In this document: positions 37,379 through 48,025 of the stretch, in pieces
Position numbering within the stretch: the first letter of the stretch is position 1
Layout of the letters: every line of letters begins with the position of its first letter
Source: an uncultured Chloroflexia bacterium
GTDB taxonomy: Bacteria > Chloroflexota > Limnocylindria > Limnocylindrales > CSP1-4
Assembly (NCBI GenBank): GCA_963720755.1
Contig: CAVRGP010000006.1
Coordinates: forward strand, 160,001 to 224,000
Reading direction: 5' to 3'
Length of the DNA: 64,000 nucleotides
Translations under genes and position numbers: made by a program
Notes under the pieces: model-generated
What the model was told of the DNA's origin: nothing
Seen by the model: the letters and a program-made list of their open reading frames with translations, nothing else
Database searches by the model: none

Positions 37379-38722
37379 TTAGTCCCGCGGCATCGAGCGG
37401 AGTCGCCGCCATCGCTCGATCGCCCGTCGATGTTCGGCACGGGTCAGCTCGCGGTGTCCGAATTCGGCCAGGGCATAGTCGGCCGCCAGGCGACCGAGCG
37501 GGTCGCCCGAACCGCTCGAGCCGGATCGGGTCCGATCCGCGTGCTCGGAAGGCGTTTCGGACGGCAGACGGGCCGCGTTCGGGACCCGGCTCAGGACCTC
37601 GAGGGATGCCATGTACGCCTCGCTCGCGGTCCGCGGGTCGGGTCTTCGTCGCGGGATCGTGACGCGTGGTCGCCGGAACCGGATCCCGCCTGCAGGGCCT
37701 TCGGTTTCGCGCGTTTCGACCAGGTCGCTCTCGACCGCCGACAGTCGTGGGCGGTTGAGCAGAGCGCGGATCACGAGGAACGCCACGATGATCGCGATCG
37801 CCAGCGGTGCCAGGCCGAGGGCGACGGCCTGGATGCCGGTGGCCCCGGCTGGGTTCCCTGGTTCGAGTGGGCCGGGAGCGAGGGTCCCCCCAAGGTCTGT
37901 CGACCCCGTCAGTGGTCCGCGGACCAATTCGAGCAGGAAGACGAGGGCGGCCGCCAGCAGACCACCTGGGATCGCCAGGATGGTGATGATGACGACGATG
38001 ACGTCGGCGATCGGACCCAGCACGCCCCTGAGCGCGTCGGTCGAAGGGATCCCGAGGACCGCCGCGAGTGGGACCGACACGACCAGCAGGCAGGCGATGA
38101 CCGCCACGAGCAACGCGACCCAGGTCCGTTGATCACCCTGCGGCATCCCGGTCTCCTCCAGCTCGCCCAGGCGCGCCAGACCCATGCCCAGCAACGCGGC
38201 GGTCACGACCGCGACGGTCGCCGAGAAGGCGGCGCTCACGATCGCTGGGTCACCGGTGGCGCCGGTCGCCGCCAGGAACGCCCAGGTCCCGGCGATCGCC
38301 CAGAGGCCAGGCCCGAGCACGGTCTCGGCGATGCGCGCGTCGTCCTCCGAGGTGACGTGTGCCGACCCGCGGAACACGGCGAGACCGAGCAGGATCCCGC
38401 CCGGATGCGCCCCGATGACGGCCCATGGATCGTCGGTCAGTCGTACCGCCGCGGCTCCGAGTGGCAGCAACCAACCGACGATCGCCGCACCGATGACCAG
38501 GGCGGCCAGCGGCGTCCGATAGTGCCGGCCGGCATGGACGGACCATCGGGCGTAGCCGAGGCCGGCGGCGGCAGCACCCACGAACGCCAGCATCGGCAGC
38601 GGCGGCTGTTGATGCGTCGCCAGGCTGCCGAGCGCGAGATAGGCCAGGGTGATCCCGGCGGCCTCCATCGTGCAGGCCGCGAGGATCGCGATCCCCGCTT
38701 CAAGCGATGCGTTCGAGCGCAT
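37379..38722 (-). CDS. DUF4129-domain membrane protein
   Basis: Multi-TM plus C-terminal AY..RLPSETPSEHA..YALAEFG. Confidence 0.72.
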   Translation of the reverse strand: MRSNASLEAGIAILAACTMEAAGITLAYLALGSLATHQQPPLPMLAFVGAAAAGLGYARWSVHAGRHYRTPLAALVIGAAIVGWLLPLGAAAVRLTDDPWAVIGAHPGGILLGLAVFRGSAHVTSEDDARIAETVLGPGLWAIAGTWAFLAATGATGDPAIVSAAFSATVAVVTAALLGMGLARLGELEETGMPQGDQRTWVALLVAVIACLLVVSVPLAAVLGIPSTDALRGVLGPIADVIVVIITILAIPGGLLAAALVFLLELVRGPLTGSTDLGGTLAPGPLEPGNPAGATGIQAVALGLAPLAIAIIVAFLVIRALLNRPRLSAVESDLVETRETEGPAGGIRFRRPRVTIPRRRPDPRTASEAYMASLEVLSRVPNAARLPSETPSEHADRTRSGSSGSGDPLGRLAADYALAEFGHRELTRAEHRRAIERWRRLRSMPRD

Positions 38723-39932
38723 CCGCAGTCTGCCAATCCGGCTCGAGACGATAGGCGGCACTTCGCAGGCCGAACGCACGGGCTCTCGCGGTCCATCGAG
38801 CGGACTCGGGACCGAACCCGGCGTGGCTCACGACGTAGCCGTCGGCACCGAGCCTCCGGAGGGTCGCCAGAAAATCATCCGGATCCCGGCTGCTGAGGGC
38901 GATGATCGAGCAGCCGCTCGGGACGCGACGCGCCAGGGCTGCCAGCAGGCGGTCGAATGGCAGCGAGGCGAACGGACTGACATCGGCGAGCAGGTCCGCG
39001 ATGGCCCCGACCTGCCGCTGGTTCGCGCTGGGTGCCAGGAAGACCGTGCGCTGGGGACGCTCGCTGTAGGCGTTCACCGCGATCCCGGCCGCGATGCCGT
39101 CGACGACGAAGGATCGCACCAGGGACAACGCCGCCACACAGAGACCCTCCGCGAGGTCATCGTCCCAGCTGAGCATCCACGAGGGCCCGGACAGGGTTTG
39201 CATGTCGACGGCGACCAGCACCTCTCGCTCACGCGCGGGGTCATAGCGTCGGCTGACCGGTCGGCCGACGCGCGCGGTCGCCTTCCAGTGGATCCGTCGC
39301 AGGGGGTCGCCCGGCTGGTAGGGTCGCACCCCCGCGAACAGCGAGGGCTCCTCGTGGAGGCCTCGGACCGATGGCGAAGCACCGACCGAAGGGCTGTCCG
39401 TCACCGTCGAGCGGATGCCGACCACGCGCGGGACCACGTGGTAGACGGTCGACAGCGGCCGCTCCTCGCGCCGGCTGGATCGGGCGAACAGGTCGGCGAC
39501 CCGAAGATCCGCCTCGACGAACCGATAGGTGCCGCGCCGGCGGCCGACGATCTGGAACCGCCGCGTGACCCGTTCGAACCAGCCGACCCTCCAGGTGCCC
39601 CGCAGGACATCGAACCCGCGGCGCGGTGAGGGGATCAGCGGTCGCCCGGCGACCTCGGCGCCCTGGCTGACGACATCCTCGATCTGGAGCCAGGGCAGCG
39701 GCAGGAGCTTGGCATTGCGAACGACGAGATCCAGATCGATCCTCTCGCCCCATGGGACACGGGGCGCCGAGAGATGGCGCTCGTACTCGAGTGAGCGGAG
39801 GCCATACCTCGACCAGATGGACTGGAGGACCAGGACGAGACCCATGAGGACGCCGACGAGGAGCAGACCGCCGGCACCGAGCACCACCCCGCCGAGGATC
39901 AACGCGACCGCCAGCAGCGCGGTGGCGCCCAT
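38700..39932 (-). CDS. DUF58-domain protein
   Basis: RRGTYRF, GVRPYQPGDPLRRIHWKATAR. Confidence 0.9.
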   Translation of the reverse strand: MGATALLAVALILGGVVLGAGGLLLVGVLMGLVLVLQSIWSRYGLRSLEYERHLSAPRVPWGERIDLDLVVRNAKLLPLPWLQIEDVVSQGAEVAGRPLIPSPRRGFDVLRGTWRVGWFERVTRRFQIVGRRRGTYRFVEADLRVADLFARSSRREERPLSTVYHVVPRVVGIRSTVTDSPSVGASPSVRGLHEEPSLFAGVRPYQPGDPLRRIHWKATARVGRPVSRRYDPAREREVLVAVDMQTLSGPSWMLSWDDDLAEGLCVAALSLVRSFVVDGIAAGIAVNAYSERPQRTVFLAPSANQRQVGAIADLLADVSPFASLPFDRLLAALARRVPSGCSIIALSSRDPDDFLATLRRLGADGYVVSHAGFGPESARWTARARAFGLRSAAYRLEPDWQTADALERIA

Positions 39933-39935
39933 CGC

Positions 39936-40949
39936 TCAGGCTCGTTCGGCGACGGAGGCGGTCTCGACCGGCGGCGCGGGGACCGACCCGAGGACGTCTC
40001 CGATCACGTCCTCCGTGGTCGCGCCGCGCAGCTGCCGGTCGATATCGAGCACGATCCGATGGCCGAGCACGAACGGCGCCAGTGCCTTGACATCGTCCGG
40101 CAGGGCGAAATCGCGTCCGGCCAGGAAGGCCCACGCCTGGGTCGCCCGGTACAGCGCGACGCTGGCGCGCGGGCTGCCACCGAGGCGCAATTCGGGTCGT
40201 TCACGCGTCGCGCGCACGAGGTCGACGATGTACGCCTCGACGGGGGCGCTGACCTCGATCGCACGGACCGCGTCGCGCATGCCGAGCAGATCCTCGGGCC
40301 CGGCGATGACGGACACGATGTCGAGCGGTTCGGCCATGGCTCGGTAGCGTCGCGCGATGCGGCCCTCATCGGCGCGATCCGGGTAGCCCATCCGAACCCG
40401 CACGAGGAACCGATCCAGCTGGGCCTCTGGCAGGGCGAACGTGCCTTCGAGCTCGATCGGGTTCTCGGTCGCCAGGACGAGGAATGGGTCGGGCAGGGGC
40501 CGCGTTTCGCCCTCGATCGACACGTGCGCTTCTTCCATCGCCTCGAGCAGCGCCGACTGCGTGCGCGGGGTCGCCCGGTTGATCTCGTCGACGAGCAGGA
40601 CGTTGGTGAAGATCGGCCCGGGGATGAACCGGAATGACGACCCCTCGAGGATCGTCGCGCCGAGCACGTCACCGGGCAACAGGTCGGGGGTGCCCTGGAC
40701 CCGTGCGAAGTCCATCCCGAGCGCGCGGCTGAACGCTCGAGCCAACAGCGTCTTGCCGACACCGGGCACGTCCTCGATCAGGGCGTGGCCGTGAGCCAGG
40801 AGCGCGACGGCCAGGAGACGGATCGCGACCTCGTCGACGACCACGGCACGTTGCACGGAGTCGCGGATCGCGCGCCAGAAGCGCTCGCCGGCGAACGGGT
40901 CGGCCGGGCTGGTGGACGGCTCACTCGGGCTGGCGGACGGCTCACTCAC
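39936..40949 (-). CDS. moxR: MoxR-family AAA+ ATPase
   Basis: EDVPGVGKT, TPDLLP, DEINRA.PRTQSALLEAM, LPEAQLDRF. Confidence 0.95.
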   Translation of the reverse strand: MSEPSASPSEPSTSPADPFAGERFWRAIRDSVQRAVVVDEVAIRLLAVALLAHGHALIEDVPGVGKTLLARAFSRALGMDFARVQGTPDLLPGDVLGATILEGSSFRFIPGPIFTNVLLVDEINRATPRTQSALLEAMEEAHVSIEGETRPLPDPFLVLATENPIELEGTFALPEAQLDRFLVRVRMGYPDRADEGRIARRYRAMAEPLDIVSVIAGPEDLLGMRDAVRAIEVSAPVEAYIVDLVRATRERPELRLGGSPRASVALYRATQAWAFLAGRDFALPDDVKALAPFVLGHRIVLDIDRQLRGATTEDVIGDVLGSVPAPPVETASVAERA

Positions 40950-41030
40950 GGGTGCTGGGTCCCTCGATGGTCGGGCTGCCGTGGGCCGGCATCGTACCGC
41001 AGCGCCGGACACGCCCCGGTGACGTCGGCG

Positions 41031-41699
41031 TCAGGCGCGGAGATACGACAGCACCGCCAGCACCCGCCGATGGTCCGAGGGCTCAGGCTCGAGCCCGAGC
41101 TTGGAGAAGATCGTTCGGATATGCCCCTCGACGGTCTTCAGTTCGACGACGAGCCGCTCGGCGATGGCCTGGTTGGAGCGGCCCTCGGCCATCAGCGCGA
41201 GGACCTCCCGCTCTCGCGGGGTGAGCTCGTCCAGCGGACCGTGGGGCCGGGCGCGGCCGAGCAGCTCCTCGACGATCTCGGGATCGATCACCGAGCCGCC
41301 AGCCGCCACGCGATGGATCGCATCCAGCAGATCCGACTCGCGCAGCACCCGATCCTTCAGCAGGTAGCCGACCCCTGCCGCGTCCGCTCGCAGCAGGCGG
41401 ATCGCGTGGCGGGTCTCGACATGCGCGGAGAGGAGGAGGATCGCCACCGTGGGATGGCGGTCGCGGATGGCGATGGCCGCTTCAAGGCCCTCGGTCTGGA
41501 AGCCGGGCGGCATCCGGATGTCCATCACGACCACGTCCGGACGTTCTCGTGCGACGACGTCGAGCGCGCCCGCAGCGTCGCCGGCTTCACCCACCACCGC
41601 GAAACCCTCGTCCGCGAGCAGGTGGGACATGCCCGAGCGAAAGAGCACGGAATCGTCGACCAGGACGATCCGCGATCGGCGCTCGTTCGACGCCGTCAT
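41031..41699 (-). CDS. NarL/LuxR-family response regulator
   Basis: [44 protein letters not shown]. Confidence 0.95.
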
Positions 41700-43456
41700 G
41701 ACAGCGGGAGCACGGCCCGGACCGTCGTTCCGACACCTGCTGGGCTGGAGACGGCGAGCGTGCCTCCGACAGCCTGTGCTCGATCGATCAGCCCGTGCAG
41801 GCCGGTCCCGCCCGCTCCGACGTCGGCACCGCCGTGCCCGTCGTCGGCGACCTCGAGTTGCAGGGCGTCATCCTCGACGCGCCCGTGGATGGTCACCCTT
41901 GTCGCGTCGGCGTGCCGCAGGACGTTCGTGAGGGCTTCGGAGACGATCAGGTAGGCCGTCGTCTCGATCGGATCGGGAAGGCGCCGGTCATCGATCCGGA
42001 CATCGACCGGGAGTGGGAAACGATCCGCCAACTCACGCACGGCCGGCGCGATCCCGCCCTCGATGAGGGCGGTCGGATGGATCCCACGGGCCAGCGCACG
42101 GAGGTCGCGAAGTCCGTCCTCCAGTTCACGACTCGCCTCGTCCAGGATGCGCCCAAGCTCCGGATCGGCTTCGGCGCGTCGGTTCGCCCGTCGTAGGGTG
42201 AACCCGAGGGCGACGAGTCGCTGCTGCGCGCCATCATGAAGATCCCGCTCGAGCCTTCGCCGCTCCTCGTCCGTCGCTTCGACGAGCCGTGCCCTGGACG
42301 CGCGGACTTCCTCGAGCTGCGCTCGCAACTCCGCCGCCAACCGCTCGTTCTCGAGGGCCAGTCTCGATGCCGCCGCCGCGCTGTCCACGAGGACCTGGTC
42401 TGCAGCAGGGTCATGGATCAGGACCGCGATCGTGCCATCGGCTCCCTCGATCCGAGTGATGTCCCGTTGGTCACTCTCATCGGGCATGGCGATCGCCCGG
42501 CCCGTCGGATCGACGTATCCGCCTCCGTCTGGCGACGGGAACCCCAGTCGAAGGGTTGGATCGTGGACGGCCCGGGCGAGCACGGCCTCGAGATCGCCGG
42601 TCTTCACGCGATCGAGGTCGACCACGAGTTCGGCGATGGACCCACGTTCGAGCCGGGTCTGGAGCAGGCCGATCAGGAACGCGATCGGCAGCAGGAAGTT
42701 GGAGAGCTGCGCGATTGGACCCGTCGACGCCGCGAACAAGGCGTCCGAACCGGTGGCCTGCGCCACGAAGAACGTCCCGACGACGACCAGGGTGATCGGG
42801 CTGACCCAGAAGACAGGGGCCAGCGCCCGTCGGGCCGCGGGGGTCCCGCGCCTCCAGCGATCGAGGACCGTCAGGACGACCAGGACGGACAGGATGAGCG
42901 CACCGAGGTTCGCGACGACGCCGACGGTGTCGGCGAGTCCCTCGTTGGGCCAAAGGAGCAATGGGTTCCCGAATGGCCAGGTCGGCGGGTACGGCTCGAT
43001 GAGCCGTTGGCTGACGGTCGTCAGGAAGAACCAGGCGTAGGCGGCCATGACCAGGCGCCGGGACCAGCCAGCGGTCCTCCCCTCTGGAAAGGCGAGGTAC
43101 ACGTTGGCGAGGACGACTGTCCCGAAGAGGACCCACATGTTGCCGATGGTCCAGACGAGCGCGTCGCCCCCATCCCAGCTCAGGAAGTTGATCGTGCCCG
43201 CGAAACCCATCAAGATCACGAGTGGGCCGACCCGGTTGCCAGGTCGCGAGTACCACATGACCAGCCCCACCGCGATGGTGAACAGGTTCGCAGCGAGCTG
43301 AACGAACCAATGTCCGTCGCCGTTGTCGCCGTTGTCGGCATTCGCTGCCATGAGCGCGAGGCAGATCGCCCCGACGAGGACGCCGGCCGTGACGACCGCC
43401 GCGATGGCGACGGGGCTCGGGCGTCCTGGTGCTACCCGGTCAAGAGTCACCGACAC
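41696..43456 (-). CDS. Multi-TM sensor histidine kinase (HisKA_3)
   Basis: About 7-8 TMs, [38 protein letters not shown]; start may be GTG 43450. Confidence 0.93.
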
Positions 43457-43492
43457 CTGCCCGACCCCGATCGTTCAGCCGACATGCCGGTC

Positions 43493-43598
43493 ATCGTGCC
43501 ATCAGGGTCAAGGCGGAACCACGGTGCAGACCCTTGGGATCGACGGGTGTCGTATTGGGGTCCGCACTGGCGACTCCGGATCACCGCGGCCGGAGACT
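43493..43598. promoter_or_regulatory. Mirror-symmetric divergent promoters sharing a GGGTCYGCAC box
   Basis: Minus GGGTCTGCAC (43533-43524)-N25-CACGAT; plus GGGTCCGCAC (43558-43567)-N25-GAGACT. Confidence 0.6.
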
Positions 43599-43644
43599 CC
43601 TGATCGGAGGTCGCGTCCAGCGACCGTAGAGTGGGAGGCGACCG

Positions 43645-43875
43645 ATGGGCACGAGGATCGTCCGAGTCGCAGGTCCTTCGCAAGGCGAACAACGTGCCCG
43701 ACGTCCGTTCGACCCAGCCGGGACCACACTCATGGTCGTCATCTCCGCGTCGGTCCTCGCGGCATCCGTGATGATCGCGTCGCTCTCGGCCGGCGCCGGT
43801 CAGGGGCAGAGTCTCAGCGCAGGGCCGCCTCCGCAGCCTGGGCCCGCCCCGACGTTGTCGACGCCCGCGCCGTAG
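43645..43875 (+). CDS. Small membrane/secreted peptide with Pro-rich C-terminus
   Basis: GGGAGG RBS, 76 aa, hydrophobic helix, tail PPPQPGPAPT; has its own promoter. Confidence 0.6.
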   Translation: MGTRIVRVAGPSQGEQRARRPFDPAGTTLMVVISASVLAASVMIASLSAGAGQGQSLSAGPPPQPGPAPTLSTPAP

Positions 43876-43906
43876 AAAGGGCCAGCGGCTCGCCACTCCG
43901 AAAACC

Positions 43907-43949
43907 CCGTAGTTCCTCCGTGGTTCGCGGCTGGTCGTCACCGTACCGT
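43907..43949 (+). promoter_or_regulatory. Direct-repeat operator and -10 of the tusA-dsrE operon
   Basis: CCGTAGTT and CCGTGGTT 11 bp apart, then TACCGT at 43944. Confidence 0.5.
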
Positions 43950-43998
43950 CGAGTCACCGCTGCGATCCGCACCGGCTGAAGCCCGGAAGGAGGCCCGC

Positions 43999-44682
43999 TT
44001 GACGGCCATATCCAATCCCGCGCAGTCAAGTCCCGTGTCGCGTGACGCGGATACGACCGCGATCCAGTTCGGCGAGGCGTTCGTGAACGCGCTCGCCGCG
44101 AAGGACTTCAACGCGATCGAGGCGCTTTTCGCGCCGTTGTCGCGATTCCGGGCTCTGACGCCCAATGCCGTCCGCGAAGCGACGACCGCGGCAGGCGCTC
44201 GTCACTGGCTGGAGGGCTGGTTCGGGATGGCGGATCGGAACGAACCCATCGCGGCGCGCGCCGAGATGGTCGCCGACGTCCTCCATGTCGCGTACCGCAT
44301 CCTCCAGCACGAGAACGGAACCTGGTATCTCGTGGACCAACAGATCTTCGCCTCGCTCGAGGGGTTCGGAGTGACCGACGTGGCGCTCCTGTGTTCCGGG
44401 TTCCGCAGGGTCGAGGTCAGCGAAGTTCCATCCGCCGGGGCCTATCCCGTCGATGCTCAATTCGATGCGCTGGGGGCGAGCTGCGCCACCCTGACGCCGC
44501 GAATCCGGGACGCGGTCCAGCGCCTCGAACCCGGCCAGGTGCTGGAGATCGTGACCGACGACCCGACCGCCGGTGACGGACTCACCGCATGGACGCGGAT
44601 GACCGGCAACGAGCTCATCGACATGACCGTTGCATCCGACGGCTCCGACCACTTCTTCGTGCGGCGCGGTGCCGCGCGTTGA
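43999..44682 (+). CDS. SnoaL/NTF2-like domain fused to TusA/SirA sulfur-carrier domain
   Basis: AFVNALAAKDF..FRALTP..LLCSGF, then FDALGASC..LEPGQVLEIVTDDP..W..TGNEL; AAGGAGG RBS before TTG. Confidence 0.78.
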   Translation: MTAISNPAQSSPVSRDADTTAIQFGEAFVNALAAKDFNAIEALFAPLSRFRALTPNAVREATTAAGARHWLEGWFGMADRNEPIAARAEMVADVLHVAYRILQHENGTWYLVDQQIFASLEGFGVTDVALLCSGFRRVEVSEVPSAGAYPVDAQFDALGASCATLTPRIRDAVQRLEPGQVLEIVTDDPTAGDGLTAWTRMTGNELIDMTVASDGSDHFFVRRGAAR

Positions 44683-44720
44683 CTGACCGATCCATCATTC
44701 GAACTCGACAGGAGAAGAAC

Positions 44721-45080
44721 GTGAACACCATCCTCATCAACGCCACGCATGGTCCCGAAGATCCGGAACGAGCGACACTCGCATTCGTGGTAGCGAATGT
44801 AGCCGCGACCGCGGACCAGGATGCGATCGTGCTCCTCACCATCGACGGCGCCTGGCTCGCCGTCCGCGGCCGATCCGACGACGTGGCGCACGACGGGCTC
44901 CCGCCGCTCAGCGACGTGATGACCCAGTTCGTCGCGGCCGGCGGCCGGATCTGGGCGTGCGGGGCATGCACGAAGCCGAGAGGGATCCAGCCCGATGACA
45001 TCGTCGATGGAGCGTCGATCGTGACCGCGGCCCAGGTCGTTGAGGTCCTCGCCGCGGGTGCGGCATCGCTGACGTTCTGA
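44721..45080 (+). CDS. DsrE-family protein
   Basis: THGPEDPERAT..LLTIDG..GGRIWACGAC; AGGAG RBS before GTG. Confidence 0.88.
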   Translation: MNTILINATHGPEDPERATLAFVVANVAATADQDAIVLLTIDGAWLAVRGRSDDVAHDGLPPLSDVMTQFVAAGGRIWACGACTKPRGIQPDDIVDGASIVTAAQVVEVLAAGAASLTF

Positions 45081-45136
45081 GTCAGTGGGGTACCGTGTCG
45101 CGGTGGGAGCGCGGCGAACGTGAGGCGGCACTCGCC

Positions 45137-48025
45137 ATGAGCCGATCGCGGCTCGTCGGCCGGGTGGATGAGGCTGGCCGTCTACAGCAGGCGCTTCGGT
45201 CTGCCCAACGGCGGCGAGGCGGTCTCGTCCTGGTCGCCGGTGACGCCGGTATCGGGAAGACCGAGCTCATCGAATCCATCGTCAGCCGGTCGGCCGCGAT
45301 CGTGCTGCGTGGGGCCGCCCGTTCCGAGGCCACGCCGCCGCTCGGTCCGCTGATCGCCGCGATCCGGTCGCATCCCGACTGGCCCGGGATCGCGGAGGCC
45401 CTCGATCGCTCCGGGCGGGTGCAGCTCCGTGACCTGATCCCTGAGGCGGCTCCGTCGGATATGTCGGGCACCGAAAGCCACCCGGCGGGCGGGCGACCTC
45501 CCAACGAGATCGCATCCGTCTGTCGGCTGCTCATCGCGATGTCACGAGTCGACCCGCTGACCCTCGTCCTCGACGACCTCCAGTGGGTCGACCACGCATC
45601 GGTCGAACTGTTGATGACGCTCGCTGGTGCGATCGAGCACGAGCATGTCCTCGTCATCGGTGCCTATCGCACGGATGAGCTGGTTCGGTCCAGTCCCATT
45701 CGCCGACTCCGGGTCGGGTTGCGACGGATCGGCCGGTTCACGGAGATCAACCTCAGCGGGCTCGACGGCGATCAGATAGTCGAGCTGTCGAGCGACCTTC
45801 TCGGAGCTTCGCCGGACCGCCTTCTGGCACAGCGGCTCATCGACCAGAGCCAGGGCGTGCCCCTGTATGTCGAAGAACTCGTCGGAGCCCTCCGAACGAC
45901 CGGCGCGGTGACCCTCGTGGACGGCGTCGCGACATTGGCCCGCGACGACCTTCCGATCCCGGATTCGCTTCGCGACAGCGTGCTCGTTCGAATCGATGGA
46001 CTCGCTTCGCGCACGCGCGAAGCGCTCGGCGTGGCCGCCCTCATCGGGGAGCATGCTCCGGAGTCACTCGTCGACGACCTGGTACCGGGAGCCGGCGATT
46101 GGCCTCGCGCCGGGAGGGAGACCGGGATCCTCCGCGGAGCGGTCGGCAACCAGATCGCCTTCCGCCACTCGCTCGTCCGCGAGATCCTCGCGGATGATCT
46201 GCCATCCCCGGAGCGTCGCACCTATCACCGCCGACTCGCATCCATCCTCGCCGAGCGGGCCGGTGATCCGCTGGAGATCGCCGCCCATTGGCTGGCTACC
46301 GATGAGCCGAGTCGGGCGGTCGCATGGCTCGTCGAGGCGGGCGACGGATCGTGTCGCGTCCACGCGTATCGAGACGCGGCGACGGCGTTCCGTCGGGCAC
46401 TCGACGAAGACCGGGGGACGTTGCCGGATCGCGTGACGATCCTCGAGCGGCTGGCCGAGTGCAGTGAACTGGCTGGTGAGCCCGCCGAGGCTGCTCGAAC
46501 CTGGCTGGCTGCTGCGACGATGCGACAAGCGGCGGGCGAGCATGCCGAGTCGGCGCAGGATCAACGGCGCCGCGCTCGAGCGCTCGAGGTCCAGGGGCGC
46601 TGGCAACGGGCGACCGATGCGCGTCTCGCTGCGGCCGACCAGTTCGCCGTGTCTGGTGCCGCTGCCGACGCGGCCATCGAACGTCTCGCCGTCGCGAGTC
46701 ACTTGCGATCGGCGGCGAGTTTCACCGCAGCCCTCGAGGTCCTCGCCCTCGCCCGCCACGACGCCACGGCGGCCGATCGCATCGATCTCGAGATCCGGGT
46801 GGCCGGCCAGGAGGGAAACGTTCTCGCCAGGTTGGGCCAGACGGAGGTCGGCCTGGCGCTTCTGCGCGACGGGTTGGCCCGCGCGCTGGACCACGGTGCC
46901 ACCGAAGCCGCCGCCGAGCTGTATCAACGACTGGCCGACGCGCTCGAGCACGACGGGCAGCGAGTATCGGCACGGGACGCCTACACGGAGGGAGCAGCCT
47001 TTTGCCGAGCAAAGGCGATCGAGGACACCGCGCTCCTGTGCATGGCCTGCATGTCGGTGGTGCTCTGGCAGACCGGCGACTGGCCGGCTGCCGAGCGGGT
47101 CTGCCGCGAGGTCGTCGCCTCGACCGATGCCACACTTCACGCCAGAGCTGTCGCCGAGGGTGTGTTGGGTCTCGTTTCCGCTGTCCGAGGTCGTCCTGGG
47201 CGAGCGCGACCGCATCTCGAGGCGTGCCTGGCGATCGGCCGACGGATCGAACTCGTGGCGATGGAGTTGCTGGCGACCTGGGGTCTGGCGATCACGGATC
47301 GGATCGAGGGCGATGATGCCGCGGCCGAGGAGCGGTGCCGCGACCTGCTGGTGCTCTGGGATCAGACGGAAGAACGCCATTTCGTGGTGCCCGCCCTGCG
47401 CTGGGCGGCCGGCTTTCACGCGCAGCGACGCGATCCGGCATCGGTACGTGCCTGCGCCAGTGCACTCTCCCGGATCGCTGCGCAAACGGGCCAGCGAGAG
47501 GCGGTGGCATCACTCGGCTTCGCGCTTGGCGAGGCGGCCGCCGTCGAGGGCAACCACGCCGGCGCGGTGACCCACCTCGCCCGAGCGCTACAGGCGATCT
47601 CCGACGACGACCTCCCGCTCGAGCGAGCGGAGATCGGGCGACGGTACGGACTCGAGCTCGTCGCCGTGGGCGAACGAGATGAGGGCCTTCGAACGTTGGC
47701 GATCGCAGCACGGACCGCGCGGCGTATCGGCGCGGCACCGCTGGCCGAGACCATCGCGGCCGACGTCGAACGACTTGGGGAATCCATCGAGCGACGCCTC
47801 GGGCGGCGCGAGGCACGGCGGTTGGCCGACGGCGGTCTCACCCAGCGCGAGATCGAAACCCTGCGGCTCGTCGCCGGCGGCATGACGAGCCGCGAGATCG
47901 GCGAGGCGCTGTTCATCAGCACAAGGACCGTGGAGATGCACGTCGGCAGTGCCCTCACGAAGCTTGATTGCCGAACGCGGGCGGAAGCCGTCCAGCGCGT
48001 CGGATCCCTCGGCCTGCTCGCCTGA
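45137..48025 (+). CDS. Large ATP-binding LuxR (LAL) transcriptional regulator
   Basis: LVGR, GDAGIGKT, LVLDDLQWVD, FRH.L.RE, TPR-like helices, LTQREIE..ISTRTVEMHV HTH. Confidence 0.92.
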   Translation: MSRSRLVGRVDEAGRLQQALRSAQRRRGGLVLVAGDAGIGKTELIESIVSRSAAIVLRGAARSEATPPLGPLIAAIRSHPDWPGIAEALDRSGRVQLRDLIPEAAPSDMSGTESHPAGGRPPNEIASVCRLLIAMSRVDPLTLVLDDLQWVDHASVELLMTLAGAIEHEHVLVIGAYRTDELVRSSPIRRLRVGLRRIGRFTEINLSGLDGDQIVELSSDLLGASPDRLLAQRLIDQSQGVPLYVEELVGALRTTGAVTLVDGVATLARDDLPIPDSLRDSVLVRIDGLASRTREALGVAALIGEHAPESLVDDLVPGAGDWPRAGRETGILRGAVGNQIAFRHSLVREILADDLPSPERRTYHRRLASILAERAGDPLEIAAHWLATDEPSRAVAWLVEAGDGSCRVHAYRDAATAFRRALDEDRGTLPDRVTILERLAECSELAGEPAEAARTWLAAATMRQAAGEHAESAQDQRRRARALEVQGRWQRATDARLAAADQFAVSGAAADAAIERLAVASHLRSAASFTAALEVLALARHDATAADRIDLEIRVAGQEGNVLARLGQTEVGLALLRDGLARALDHGATEAAAELYQRLADALEHDGQRVSARDAYTEGAAFCRAKAIEDTALLCMACMSVVLWQTGDWPAAERVCREVVASTDATLHARAVAEGVLGLVSAVRGRPGRARPHLEACLAIGRRIELVAMELLATWGLAITDRIEGDDAAAEERCRDLLVLWDQTEERHFVVPALRWAAGFHAQRRDPASVRACASALSRIAAQTGQREAVASLGFALGEAAAVEGNHAGAVTHLARALQAISDDDLPLERAEIGRRYGLELVAVGERDEGLRTLAIAARTARRIGAAPLAETIAADVERLGESIERRLGRREARRLADGGLTQREIETLRLVAGGMTSREIGEALFISTRTVEMHVGSALTKLDCRTRAEAVQRVGSLGLLA

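Follow-up and report, generated by a model that had tools for sequence, protein, structure and literature searches.

A kinase-regulator pair and a divergent small-protein gene around a predicted bidirectional promoter form a conserved cassette in Limnocylindria-type Chloroflexota

The 64,000-nucleotide stretch analyzed here (the window) spans positions 160,001 to 224,000 of contig CAVRGP010000006.1 in a 3.0-Mb genome of 15 contigs (68.7% GC) from an uncultured member of the Limnocylindria, a lineage of abundant soil Chloroflexota that was formerly called Ellin6529 or CSP1-4 and is not known to have genetic systems. Within the window, the genes of a response regulator and a sensor histidine kinase, both on the minus strand, face a plus-strand gene for a 76-residue protein across a 188-nt spacer that holds an inverted pair of short boxes. 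A first-pass annotation, made from the letters and their open reading frames (ORFs), had described this arrangement as a candidate peptide-signalling module. All of its sequence statements, from gene positions, boxes and hexamers to the ribosome-binding site (RBS) and the peptide features, check exactly: the pair does face a 76-aa ORF with a strong RBS, a distance of precisely 25 nt separates each box from a hexamer whose second letter is A and whose sixth is T, and the hydrophobic helix, the doubled SLSAG and the Pro-rich tail are all present. Its interpretation divides in two, the module and the mirror-image promoters holding up and the peptide signalling finding no support. The features of the locus are as follows.

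41031-41699, minus strand: response regulator (RR), 222 aa, receiver domain plus a GerE/LuxR-type helix-turn-helix (HTH), NarL class
41696-43456, minus strand: sensor histidine kinase (HK), 584-586 aa, with eight transmembrane (TM) helices (~15-270), an alpha/beta domain (286-350), HisKA_3 and HATPase_c
43447-43485, minus strand: 12-codon upstream ORF (uORF), beginning 7 nt past the -10 hexamer, its TGA overlapping the kinase GTG
43493-43498 (43498..43493), minus strand: kinase-side -10-like hexamer CACGAT, ATCGTG on the plus strand
43505-43511, no strand assigned: third element of the GGGTC type, located between the kinase -10 and box B; it reads GGGTCAA, and TTGACC on the minus strand
43524-43533, minus strand: box B, GTGCAGACCC on the plus and GGGTCTGCAC on the minus strand
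43558-43567, plus strand: box C, GGGTCCGCAC, an inverted copy of box B
43593-43598, plus strand: peptide-side -10-like hexamer GAGACT, 25 nt from box C
43609-43625, plus strand: hairpin GGTCGC-GTCCA-GCGACC (RNAalifold) in the predicted 5' untranslated region (UTR) of the small gene
43633-43638, plus strand: Shine-Dalgarno (SD) sequence GGGAGG, 6 nt upstream of the ATG
43645-43875, plus strand: small protein, 76 aa, predicted N-in/C-out bitopic membrane protein

The kinase and the regulator constitute a two-component system of the HisKA_3/NarL type and carry both defining features of that class: the kinase matches the Pfam families HisKA_3 (9e-11; 42.6 bits, cut-off 24) and HATPase_c (6.7e-9), and the regulator matches Response_reg (1.9e-20) and GerE (8.7e-14). 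H407, within the LHDG motif of the kinase, is invariant across 56 sequences. The two genes lie in one operon, in which the start of the regulator overlaps the stop of the kinase as ATGA, and they stay paired at the orthologous loci; the kinase start backed by the orthologue alignment is the GTG at 43450, the longest ORF beginning at 43456. The kinase input had been described as almost wholly transmembrane, and the AF2 model (pLDDT 86) agrees: eight TM helices between residue 15 and about residue 270 leave a single extracytoplasmic loop of ~18 residues, and a small alpha/beta domain, the DHp helices and the ATPase domain follow. This loop (~154-171) abounds in W, Y, F and P; its sequence is conserved in part, with a nearly invariant N164 and an NPLL.WPN motif. 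Foldseek matches to the kinase are restricted to its DesK/VraS-like core, the DesK catalytic core being the best of them, and the TM domain has no counterpart among the matches listed; the NCBIfam LiaS model scores 71.8, far under its cut-off of 450. The closest solved relatives of the regulator are VraR (6.9e-27), DevR, NarL and DesR, and the protein is 82-99% identical between orthologous cassettes.

Comparison across genomes shows that the 76-aa ORF is a real gene. By composition alone the ORF is equivocal (GC of 0.69/0.66/0.77 at codon positions 1/2/3); the case is made by the presence of a divergent ORF with a GGAG-type RBS at 12 of 12 close kinase orthologue loci (L025-L036) and by a dN/dS of 0.32-0.70 over 45 pairs. 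These ORFs encode 74-96 aa (120 aa in L027) and are 43-59% identical to the window copy. Conservation of the small ORF beside homologous kinases in related genomes had been named beforehand as a check, and it is found at every one of these loci. The protein matches no Pfam or NCBIfam model, and has no paralogue in the genome that holds the window (second match E 0.046). A family profile search retrieves 72 clusters among 5.8 billion proteins, all unnamed and none with a Pfam domain, and the ESM Atlas yields just unnamed clusters at 0.88-0.89, under the useful level.

The small protein opens with a conserved MGTR(V/I)(V/I)RI motif, its most conserved soluble part, and continues through a basic linker into a 24-aa hydrophobic helix (LDPAGTxLMVxxSxSVLAAS...), which falls in the only Kyte-Doolittle segment (24-51). 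The tail, GPPPQPGPAPTLSTPAP in the window, is Pro-rich with a PxPxPxPT pattern, in which P63, P65, P67 and P69 are each kept at >=90% in the family alignment. Since the N-terminal side is Arg-rich, the tail is uncharged and Pro-rich, and there is just one such segment, an N-in/C-out anchor is the simplest reading, and the protein looks like a bitopic anchor of this orientation. Signal peptidase I favours small residues at -1/-3, and the residues past the helix, where cleavage might occur, read SAG in the window and STD, AAV, SIV or VLG in relatives; this variation, to D or V, argues against a conserved signal peptidase I site. A double-glycine leader is absent from the protein. From these features, it is likely that the protein stays anchored in the membrane rather than being released. 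Under 100 aa long (74-96 aa in 12 of 13 loci) and bitopic by hydropathy, it has the size of known small kinase modulators such as MgrB and SafA.

The three genes travel as a unit. A search with sensor residues 1-300 against 401 family genomes (400 besides the window's own) places close kinase orthologues in 12 genomes besides the window's own and in six other genera, with sensor identities of 74-76% (59-67% for L035; one orthologue is partial), and the best sensor matches inside the window's own genus are just 30-44% identical. So scattered a distribution among seven genera suggests that the cassette is accessory and was possibly acquired by transfer. Approached from the peptide side, the kinase is divergent next to the small gene in 11 of 13 genome loci, ten of which have the regulator too; of ten metagenome loci with the small gene, three carry the kinase, one a 42-residue remnant of it, and two end a short way upstream yet include the boxed spacer, one lies in a different context described below (LuxR/SnoaL), and three are uninformative. 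The boundaries of the unit are sharp. Each locus has its own flanking genes past the peptide and past the regulator, those downstream of the peptide being variously SnoaL-TusA, an FGGY kinase, an amidase, a DUF4386-like protein or uncharacterized genes, and the similarity between the window and its nearest relative, L054 (92% identical in the peptide, 98.6% in the regulator and, across the 392 residues aligned, 98% in the kinase), ends at the stop codon of the peptide. Because the flanks differ and the similarity to L054 stops there, the conserved unit is taken to be the regulator-kinase pair together with the divergent small gene, and the proposal that the pair and the small ORF form one module is thus borne out by the orthologue loci, the peptide loci and this edge of synteny.

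Several copies of the cassette are irregular. The L054 kinase (L054:2051-4000) reads as truncated, with 402 aa from residue 195, and the L035 kinase is split over three frames; these breaks reflect either indels in assemblies of long-read metagenome-assembled genomes (MAGs) or real decay. The metagenome contig L074 (2083-2626) retains the small gene and the spacer with its two boxes, next to a kinase remnant (residues 27-68, 42 in all) and no regulator, and is possibly a decayed cassette. G284 holds two kinase copies on two contigs with identical scores.

The spacer can be followed through 21 unique orthologous sequences in a nearly gapless alignment, in which many close kin raise the baseline identity. 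Mean column identity reaches 0.97 in box B, 0.93 in box C, 0.97 in ATCGTG, 0.99 in AGACT and 0.93 in the GGGTCAA element, so that six short motifs stand at 0.93-0.99; it is ~0.9 for the hairpin and the SD, and 0.76-0.78 for the stretches between motifs. The conserved blocks, read on the plus strand, are CATG (43483-43486), ATCGTG (43493-43498), GGGTCAA (43505-43511), CCAC.GTGCAGRCCC, GGGTCNGCAC and AGACT (43594-43598). Box B is GTGCAGRCCC in 20 of the 21 spacers and GTGCTGACCC in L035, and box C retains GGGTC in all 21 and the full GGGTCNGCAC in 17, the exceptions carrying GCGC (L030 and L031), GACAC (L028) and GCCC (L035). Box B lies 25 nt from the kinase hexamer in 19 spacers and 26 nt in two, and no spacer has an indel between box C and the peptide hexamer; sequence variation falls in the 24 nt that part the two boxes and in the 25-nt stretches that separate each of them from its hexamer. 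The mirror-image boxes and hexamers, first seen in a single sequence, therefore keep their geometry across the orthologues. The paired boxes occur just once in the 3.0-Mb genome, bar one unrelated palindrome, and a repeat scan with a seed of 6 does not detect them, their arms being split 4+5 by a mismatch. The palindrome, the only other loose match to the paired boxes, is a near-perfect 40-nt one, GCGCTGACCCG...CGGGTCAGCGC, on contig C2 (G000:C2:270425-270464), and is unrelated to the cassette.

The hexamers can be read against promoters of the same genome. Its 1615 long ORFs of coding-like composition include 93 in which TAnnnT ends 6 nt upstream of the first start codon and 35 in which it ends 7 nt upstream (128/1615); at offsets of >=12 nt the count is 0-8. 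The -10 consensus of the 128 sites is TA[G][A/C][A/C]T, and their upstream sequence shows no -35 signal. A TANNNT motif ~12 bp upstream of the start is described as a mark of leaderless genes in the work cited (PMC3160421). Because the peak at 6-7 nt before starts matches this published signature, leaderless mRNAs appear to be common in the genome. TAGACT is a frequent and TACGAT an observed -10 of its leaderless genes; the peptide hexamer (GAGACT, AAGACT or CAGACT) and the kinase hexamer CACGAT match them, respectively, at 5 of 6 positions. The hexamers called -10-like in the first pass thus fit the genome's own consensus in all but the first T, and that position is never T, on either side, in any of the 21 spacers. 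The remainder is stable: the kinase hexamer is CACGAT in 20 spacers and CAGACT in one (L035), and the peptide hexamer is nAGACT in 20 with AGATT in one. Consistently weakened -10 hexamers of this kind are expected of activator-dependent promoters. With transcription starts 6-7 nt downstream of the hexamers, box C would cover about -47 to -38 (centre ~-42.5) and box B about -48 to -39 (centre ~-43.5), and an activator that replaces the -35 contact usually sits around there, near -43. Both boxes are thus probably activator sites of weak promoters that have no usable -35, as predicted from their placement, and there is good reason to regard the spacer as a bidirectional promoter/operator, the most secure of the functional assignments made here.

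On the kinase side, an ATG stands 7 nt past the hexamer in 20 of the 21 spacers and 6 nt past it in L035. The uORF that begins there has 12 codons and ends in the GTGA overlap in 17 spacers; in three it has 17 codons and overlaps the kinase start region, and L035 has a 64-codon ORF in its place. The uORF is predicted to be leaderless and translationally coupled to the kinase. Distant kinase loci (32-55% identity) bear on its origin. Seven of 28 keep a box-like decamer, a gap of 24-26 nt, nAnnnT, a further 6-7 nt and a start codon, a layout met once on the opposite strand of the same 28 loci and in 10 of 560 shuffles, and in those seven the start opens the kinase itself, leading straight into TM1. 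The shared layout implies that the kinase-side promoter design is older than the cassette, and the uORF looks like a later insertion between a leaderless start and the kinase. Two other assignments on this side were rejected. One took TTGACC (43506-43511, minus strand) for the kinase -35, but 7 nt lie between it and CACGAT, and at 17-19 nt downstream no hexamer resembles a -10. The other took the ATG at 43485, which is conserved, for the kinase start, but its frame is not that of the kinase and closes after 12 codons.

On the other side, 45 nt separate AGACT from the ATG of the small gene, a distance that implies a leadered mRNA. RNAalifold, applied to 18 of the 21 unique spacers, shows the 6-bp stem of the hairpin at 43609-43625 to be kept, with covariation that consists of one CG-to-UA double change (the window and L054, one event) and of G-U variants, and an Rfam scan of 43300-44100 with E up to 1 gives no match. 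The SD is of the GGGAG or GGAG type in most spacers and weaker in L033 and L028. TAGAGT (43627-43632), tried as a peptide promoter, is not conserved beyond the window (TAGAGC in L054). RNAalifold also paired a CUCCU, immediately downstream of AGA, with the SD, and AGACUCC was accordingly considered as an anti-SD; it was discounted, since AGACT is invariant where the CC changes (L028, L034, L002) and no conserved -10 lies upstream.

The explanation that best accommodates these observations, to which taken whole an even chance is given, is a self-contained and horizontally portable three-gene cassette of Limnocylindria-type Chloroflexota: an autoregulated HisKA_3/NarL system whose regulator co-induces a small membrane protein that is its partner or its target. 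The phosphorylated regulator would bind both boxes and turn both promoters on together. On the kinase side, the transcript would start at the AUG of the leaderless 12-codon uORF, and the uORF stop, which overlaps the kinase start as GUGA, would couple kinase translation to that of the uORF, giving positive autoregulation. On the other side, a leadered mRNA with a ~40-nt 5' UTR, the hairpin and the strong SD would be made into the small protein, which would insert N-in/C-out and stay in the membrane as a built-in partner or target.

A number of observations weigh against this explanation. In a single sequence the inverted repeat is within chance: the spacer has two ten-nt inverted repeats with <=1 mismatch, against a shuffle mean of 0.76, and at least two occur in 19% of 1000 dinucleotide shuffles; the feature is judged real because of its comparative conservation and the contrast between motifs and the stretches between them. 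A generic scan for sigma-70 promoters and terminators found neither, and the CUCCU-SD pairing would count against the proposed layout if the transcript began further upstream. The third conserved element at 43505-43511, to which GGTCCA corresponds in distant loci, is not accounted for by it; together with the GACCC of box B this element makes up an inverted repeat of 5 bp, and for this reason it may be a further regulator half-site. The stretch is contained in five DNA-type runs from soil or wetland, and no RNA run is among those listed. Finally, 22 of 27 testable distant kinase homologues lack, by a heuristic search, a small ORF of this kind. At the other five, a comparable small ORF runs divergently from the kinase gene, and its product combines a TM helix with a Pro-rich tail; in L043 and L049 this product opens with a similar motif (MTARTVQI and MTTQAIGV).

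What the small protein does within the cassette is the less certain part. Feedback on the TM sensor, after the logic of MgrB or LiaF, is the sub-reading preferred here, and corresponds to the feedback modulator that the first-pass annotation had offered beside a ligand; action on the kinase, whether by feedback or by co-sensing, is put forward tentatively, at somewhat less than an even chance. A kinase-linked role is favoured by the peptide being kept at all 12 close kinase orthologues and by the comparable small ORFs at five distant kinase loci. Complex prediction with kinase residues 1-290 (a 56-row alignment) and the small protein (61 rows) scored 0.01 against a mark of 0.32 and is used neither for nor against it. 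Among close orthologues the kinase is never found without the peptide, and the peptide is sometimes found without the kinase, an asymmetry that fits either an obligatory partner or the principal target of the system.

The principal-target alternative, in which the small protein is the main regulated product, a membrane or envelope protein with no action back on the kinase, is the strongest of the rivals, if still rather unlikely. It would work with a DUF4386-like protein where one is present, and different regulators, a two-component pair or a LuxR-TPR protein, would have been wired to its gene. The observations that speak for it are also those that speak against a kinase-directed role. In L064 (1572-5454), L066 (446-4256) and L072, a member of the family (92 aa, with a longer N-terminus) lies under another regulator, in an operon that runs TPR-GerE LuxR-type regulator, SnoaL, peptide, SnoaL and a 298-aa membrane protein, with no boxes upstream; in G431 and G432, the two LuxR-context genomes that were searched (completeness not given), no kinase sensor was found. 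A multi-pass membrane protein of 274-298 aa follows the small gene in ~12 loci of both contexts, sometimes overlapping its stop (e.g., L056:4231-5055 and L064:4558-5454); it matches no Pfam or NCBIfam model, its Atlas lead is DUF4386-like at 0.93-0.94, and its presence in both contexts points to a kinase-independent membrane function. At L008, a distant kinase locus, a membrane protein of 260 aa is encoded divergently and is DUF4386-like by eye alone. On the other hand, the window's genome has no homologue of the DUF4386-like protein and yet keeps the peptide, and all 12 close kinase orthologues keep it too, two points that are compatible with a pure output as well, and the small proteins at distant kinases have diverged along with the sensor. 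One 104-aa family member, P0036, has in its N-terminus the DPAWGRTA.AWG motif with which the DUF4386-like protein opens, and looks like a recombinant of the two neighbouring genes. The SnoaL-TusA gene in the window was considered as a relative of the SnoaL genes of the LuxR context and rejected (BLASTP E 4.2).

Whichever role the small protein has, co-induction presupposes a factor that binds the boxes. That this is the cassette's own regulator is predicted with fair, though not high, probability, because the boxes are unique to the cassette and travel with it, and the regulator is the sole DNA-binding protein that always moves along. An improbable alternative is that the boxes serve another factor or are a lineage-wide promoter element of the kinase family, the small gene being merely co-located and independently regulated. 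Box-B-like decamers do precede kinase homologues that are just 32-55% identical, and are thus older than the cassette, box C is not clearly present in those distant loci, and the half-sites lie 34 bp apart, centre to centre, unlike the compact dyad of a single NarL-type dimer, which is also a difficulty for binding by the cassette's own regulator. Set against this, the paired arrangement is unique to the cassette locus in its genome and moves with the cassette into different genomic contexts, and the regulators of distant loci with a box-B-like element are 59-65% identical to that of the cassette and more conserved than their kinases, so that a shared half-site is expected.

The weakest alternative is the peptide quorum-sensing analogy of the first-pass annotation, in which the small ORF is the precursor of a secreted Pro-rich signal that the multi-TM kinase senses in an autoinducing loop: although the co-regulation geometry resembles such loops, the PxPxPxPT tail is the best-conserved extracytoplasmic feature, the outer loop of the kinase is aromatic, Pro-rich and partly conserved, and cleavage after SAG is conceivable in the window copy, this is highly improbable given HisKA_3 and GerE domains instead of HPK10 and LytTR, no peptidase, AgrB-like or C39 ABC exporter gene conserved in the cassette (Pfam, neighbouring genes), -1/-3 residues that vary to D or V, a 24-aa hydrophobic stretch of anchor length, an N-terminal cytoplasmic motif that is the most conserved soluble part, and a kinase-free operon that also holds the family. 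A broader variant, in which the small protein is a signal-presenting subunit or a released ligand whose PxPxPxPT tail docks on the outer loop (~154-171) in a self-sensing or autoinducing circuit, fares hardly better and is also very improbable; if true, it would amount to a self-contained circuit, with a previously undescribed promoter design, in a bacterial class without cultured genetics.

The reading of the cassette as an autoregulated system with a small membrane partner or target has parallels among known systems. Judged by its logic, the cassette stands nearest to PhoQP-MgrB and LiaFSR/VraTSR, and judged by kinase class, to DesK, LiaS and VraS; it falls outside the LiaF, MgrB and Agr/Com families. 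The cited accounts describe MgrB as a small, bitopic membrane protein that is encoded within the regulon of the regulator and acts on the sensor kinase, closing a feedback loop (bioRxiv 10.1101/438515; PMC7808668). The PhoQ/PhoP-MgrB system of E. coli and Salmonella thus resembles the preferred feedback sub-reading, without a sequence relation to the small protein of the cassette (no Pfam or NCBIfam match), and, unlike mgrB, the small gene lies physically in the cassette and shares its operator. PhoQ has a periplasmic sensor, whereas the cassette kinase is a HisKA_3 protein with eight TM helices and nearly no periplasmic domain.

The LiaFSR/VraTSR systems of Firmicutes have kinase and regulator classes in common with the cassette, whose kinase core is DesK/VraS-like and whose regulator has VraR as its closest solved relative, and they combine an intramembrane-type sensor and an accessory membrane protein with strong autoregulation and, as main target, the small membrane protein LiaI. 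LiaF is larger and is co-transcribed upstream of liaS; the small gene of the cassette is divergent, its product has no homology to LiaF, LiaI or VraT, and no LiaF-family accessory is co-transcribed with the kinase. LiaS has two TM helices against eight in the cassette kinase. LiaF itself is described as an inhibitor (PMC3543457; PMC7191749). In DesK/DesR of Bacillus subtilis, too, a target gene lies next to those of a NarL-type regulator and a HisKA_3 kinase with a TM-bundle input; that kinase, DesK, spans the membrane with five helices and is not known to have a small protein as partner. The Agr and ComCDE systems share with the cassette a multi-TM kinase, a nearby small ORF and repeated boxes upstream of promoters that could co-induce. 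They pair HPK10-type kinases with LytTR-type regulators, whereas the domains found here are HisKA_3 and GerE, the genes downstream include no processing or export gene by Pfam, a conserved cleavage motif is not apparent, and the small protein looks membrane-anchored.

New elements of the cassette are the small-protein family, the 8-TM sensor, the twin weakened -10 promoters around inverted boxes and the predicted leaderless, GUGA-coupled uORF. A literature search for "Limnocylindria" and "two-component" together returned no paper. To work on this soil lineage, as yet uncultured, the locus brings a compact, testable regulatory unit with an unannotated sensor and an unannotated family of 72 clusters, and its cis-regulatory map (boxes, weakened -10s, uORF with GUGA and UTR hairpin) could be moved to a heterologous host as it is. 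The leaderless TAG(A/C)(A/C)T -10 without a -35, which appears common in the genome, can aid the annotation of start codons in Limnocylindria MAGs. Should the small protein prove to be a modulator of the kinase, the control of sensor kinases by such proteins would no longer be confined to Proteobacteria and Firmicutes but would reach well past them.

The genes that flank the cassette in the window are of other kinds. Downstream of the small gene, 43999-45080 holds a SnoaL_2-TusA fusion (TusA 4.2e-9) and a DsrE-like gene (1.1e-15), which apparently overlap by ~90 nt, and the DsrE-like gene is followed at 45095-48025 by a 976-aa AAA_16-TPR-GerE regulator; none of the three is conserved beside the cassette elsewhere. 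Downstream of the response regulator, 38700-41012 encodes a MoxR-type AAA_3 ATPase (4.3e-56) and a DUF58 protein, the usual MoxR-DUF58 pair, whose place beside the cassette is common to L054 only.

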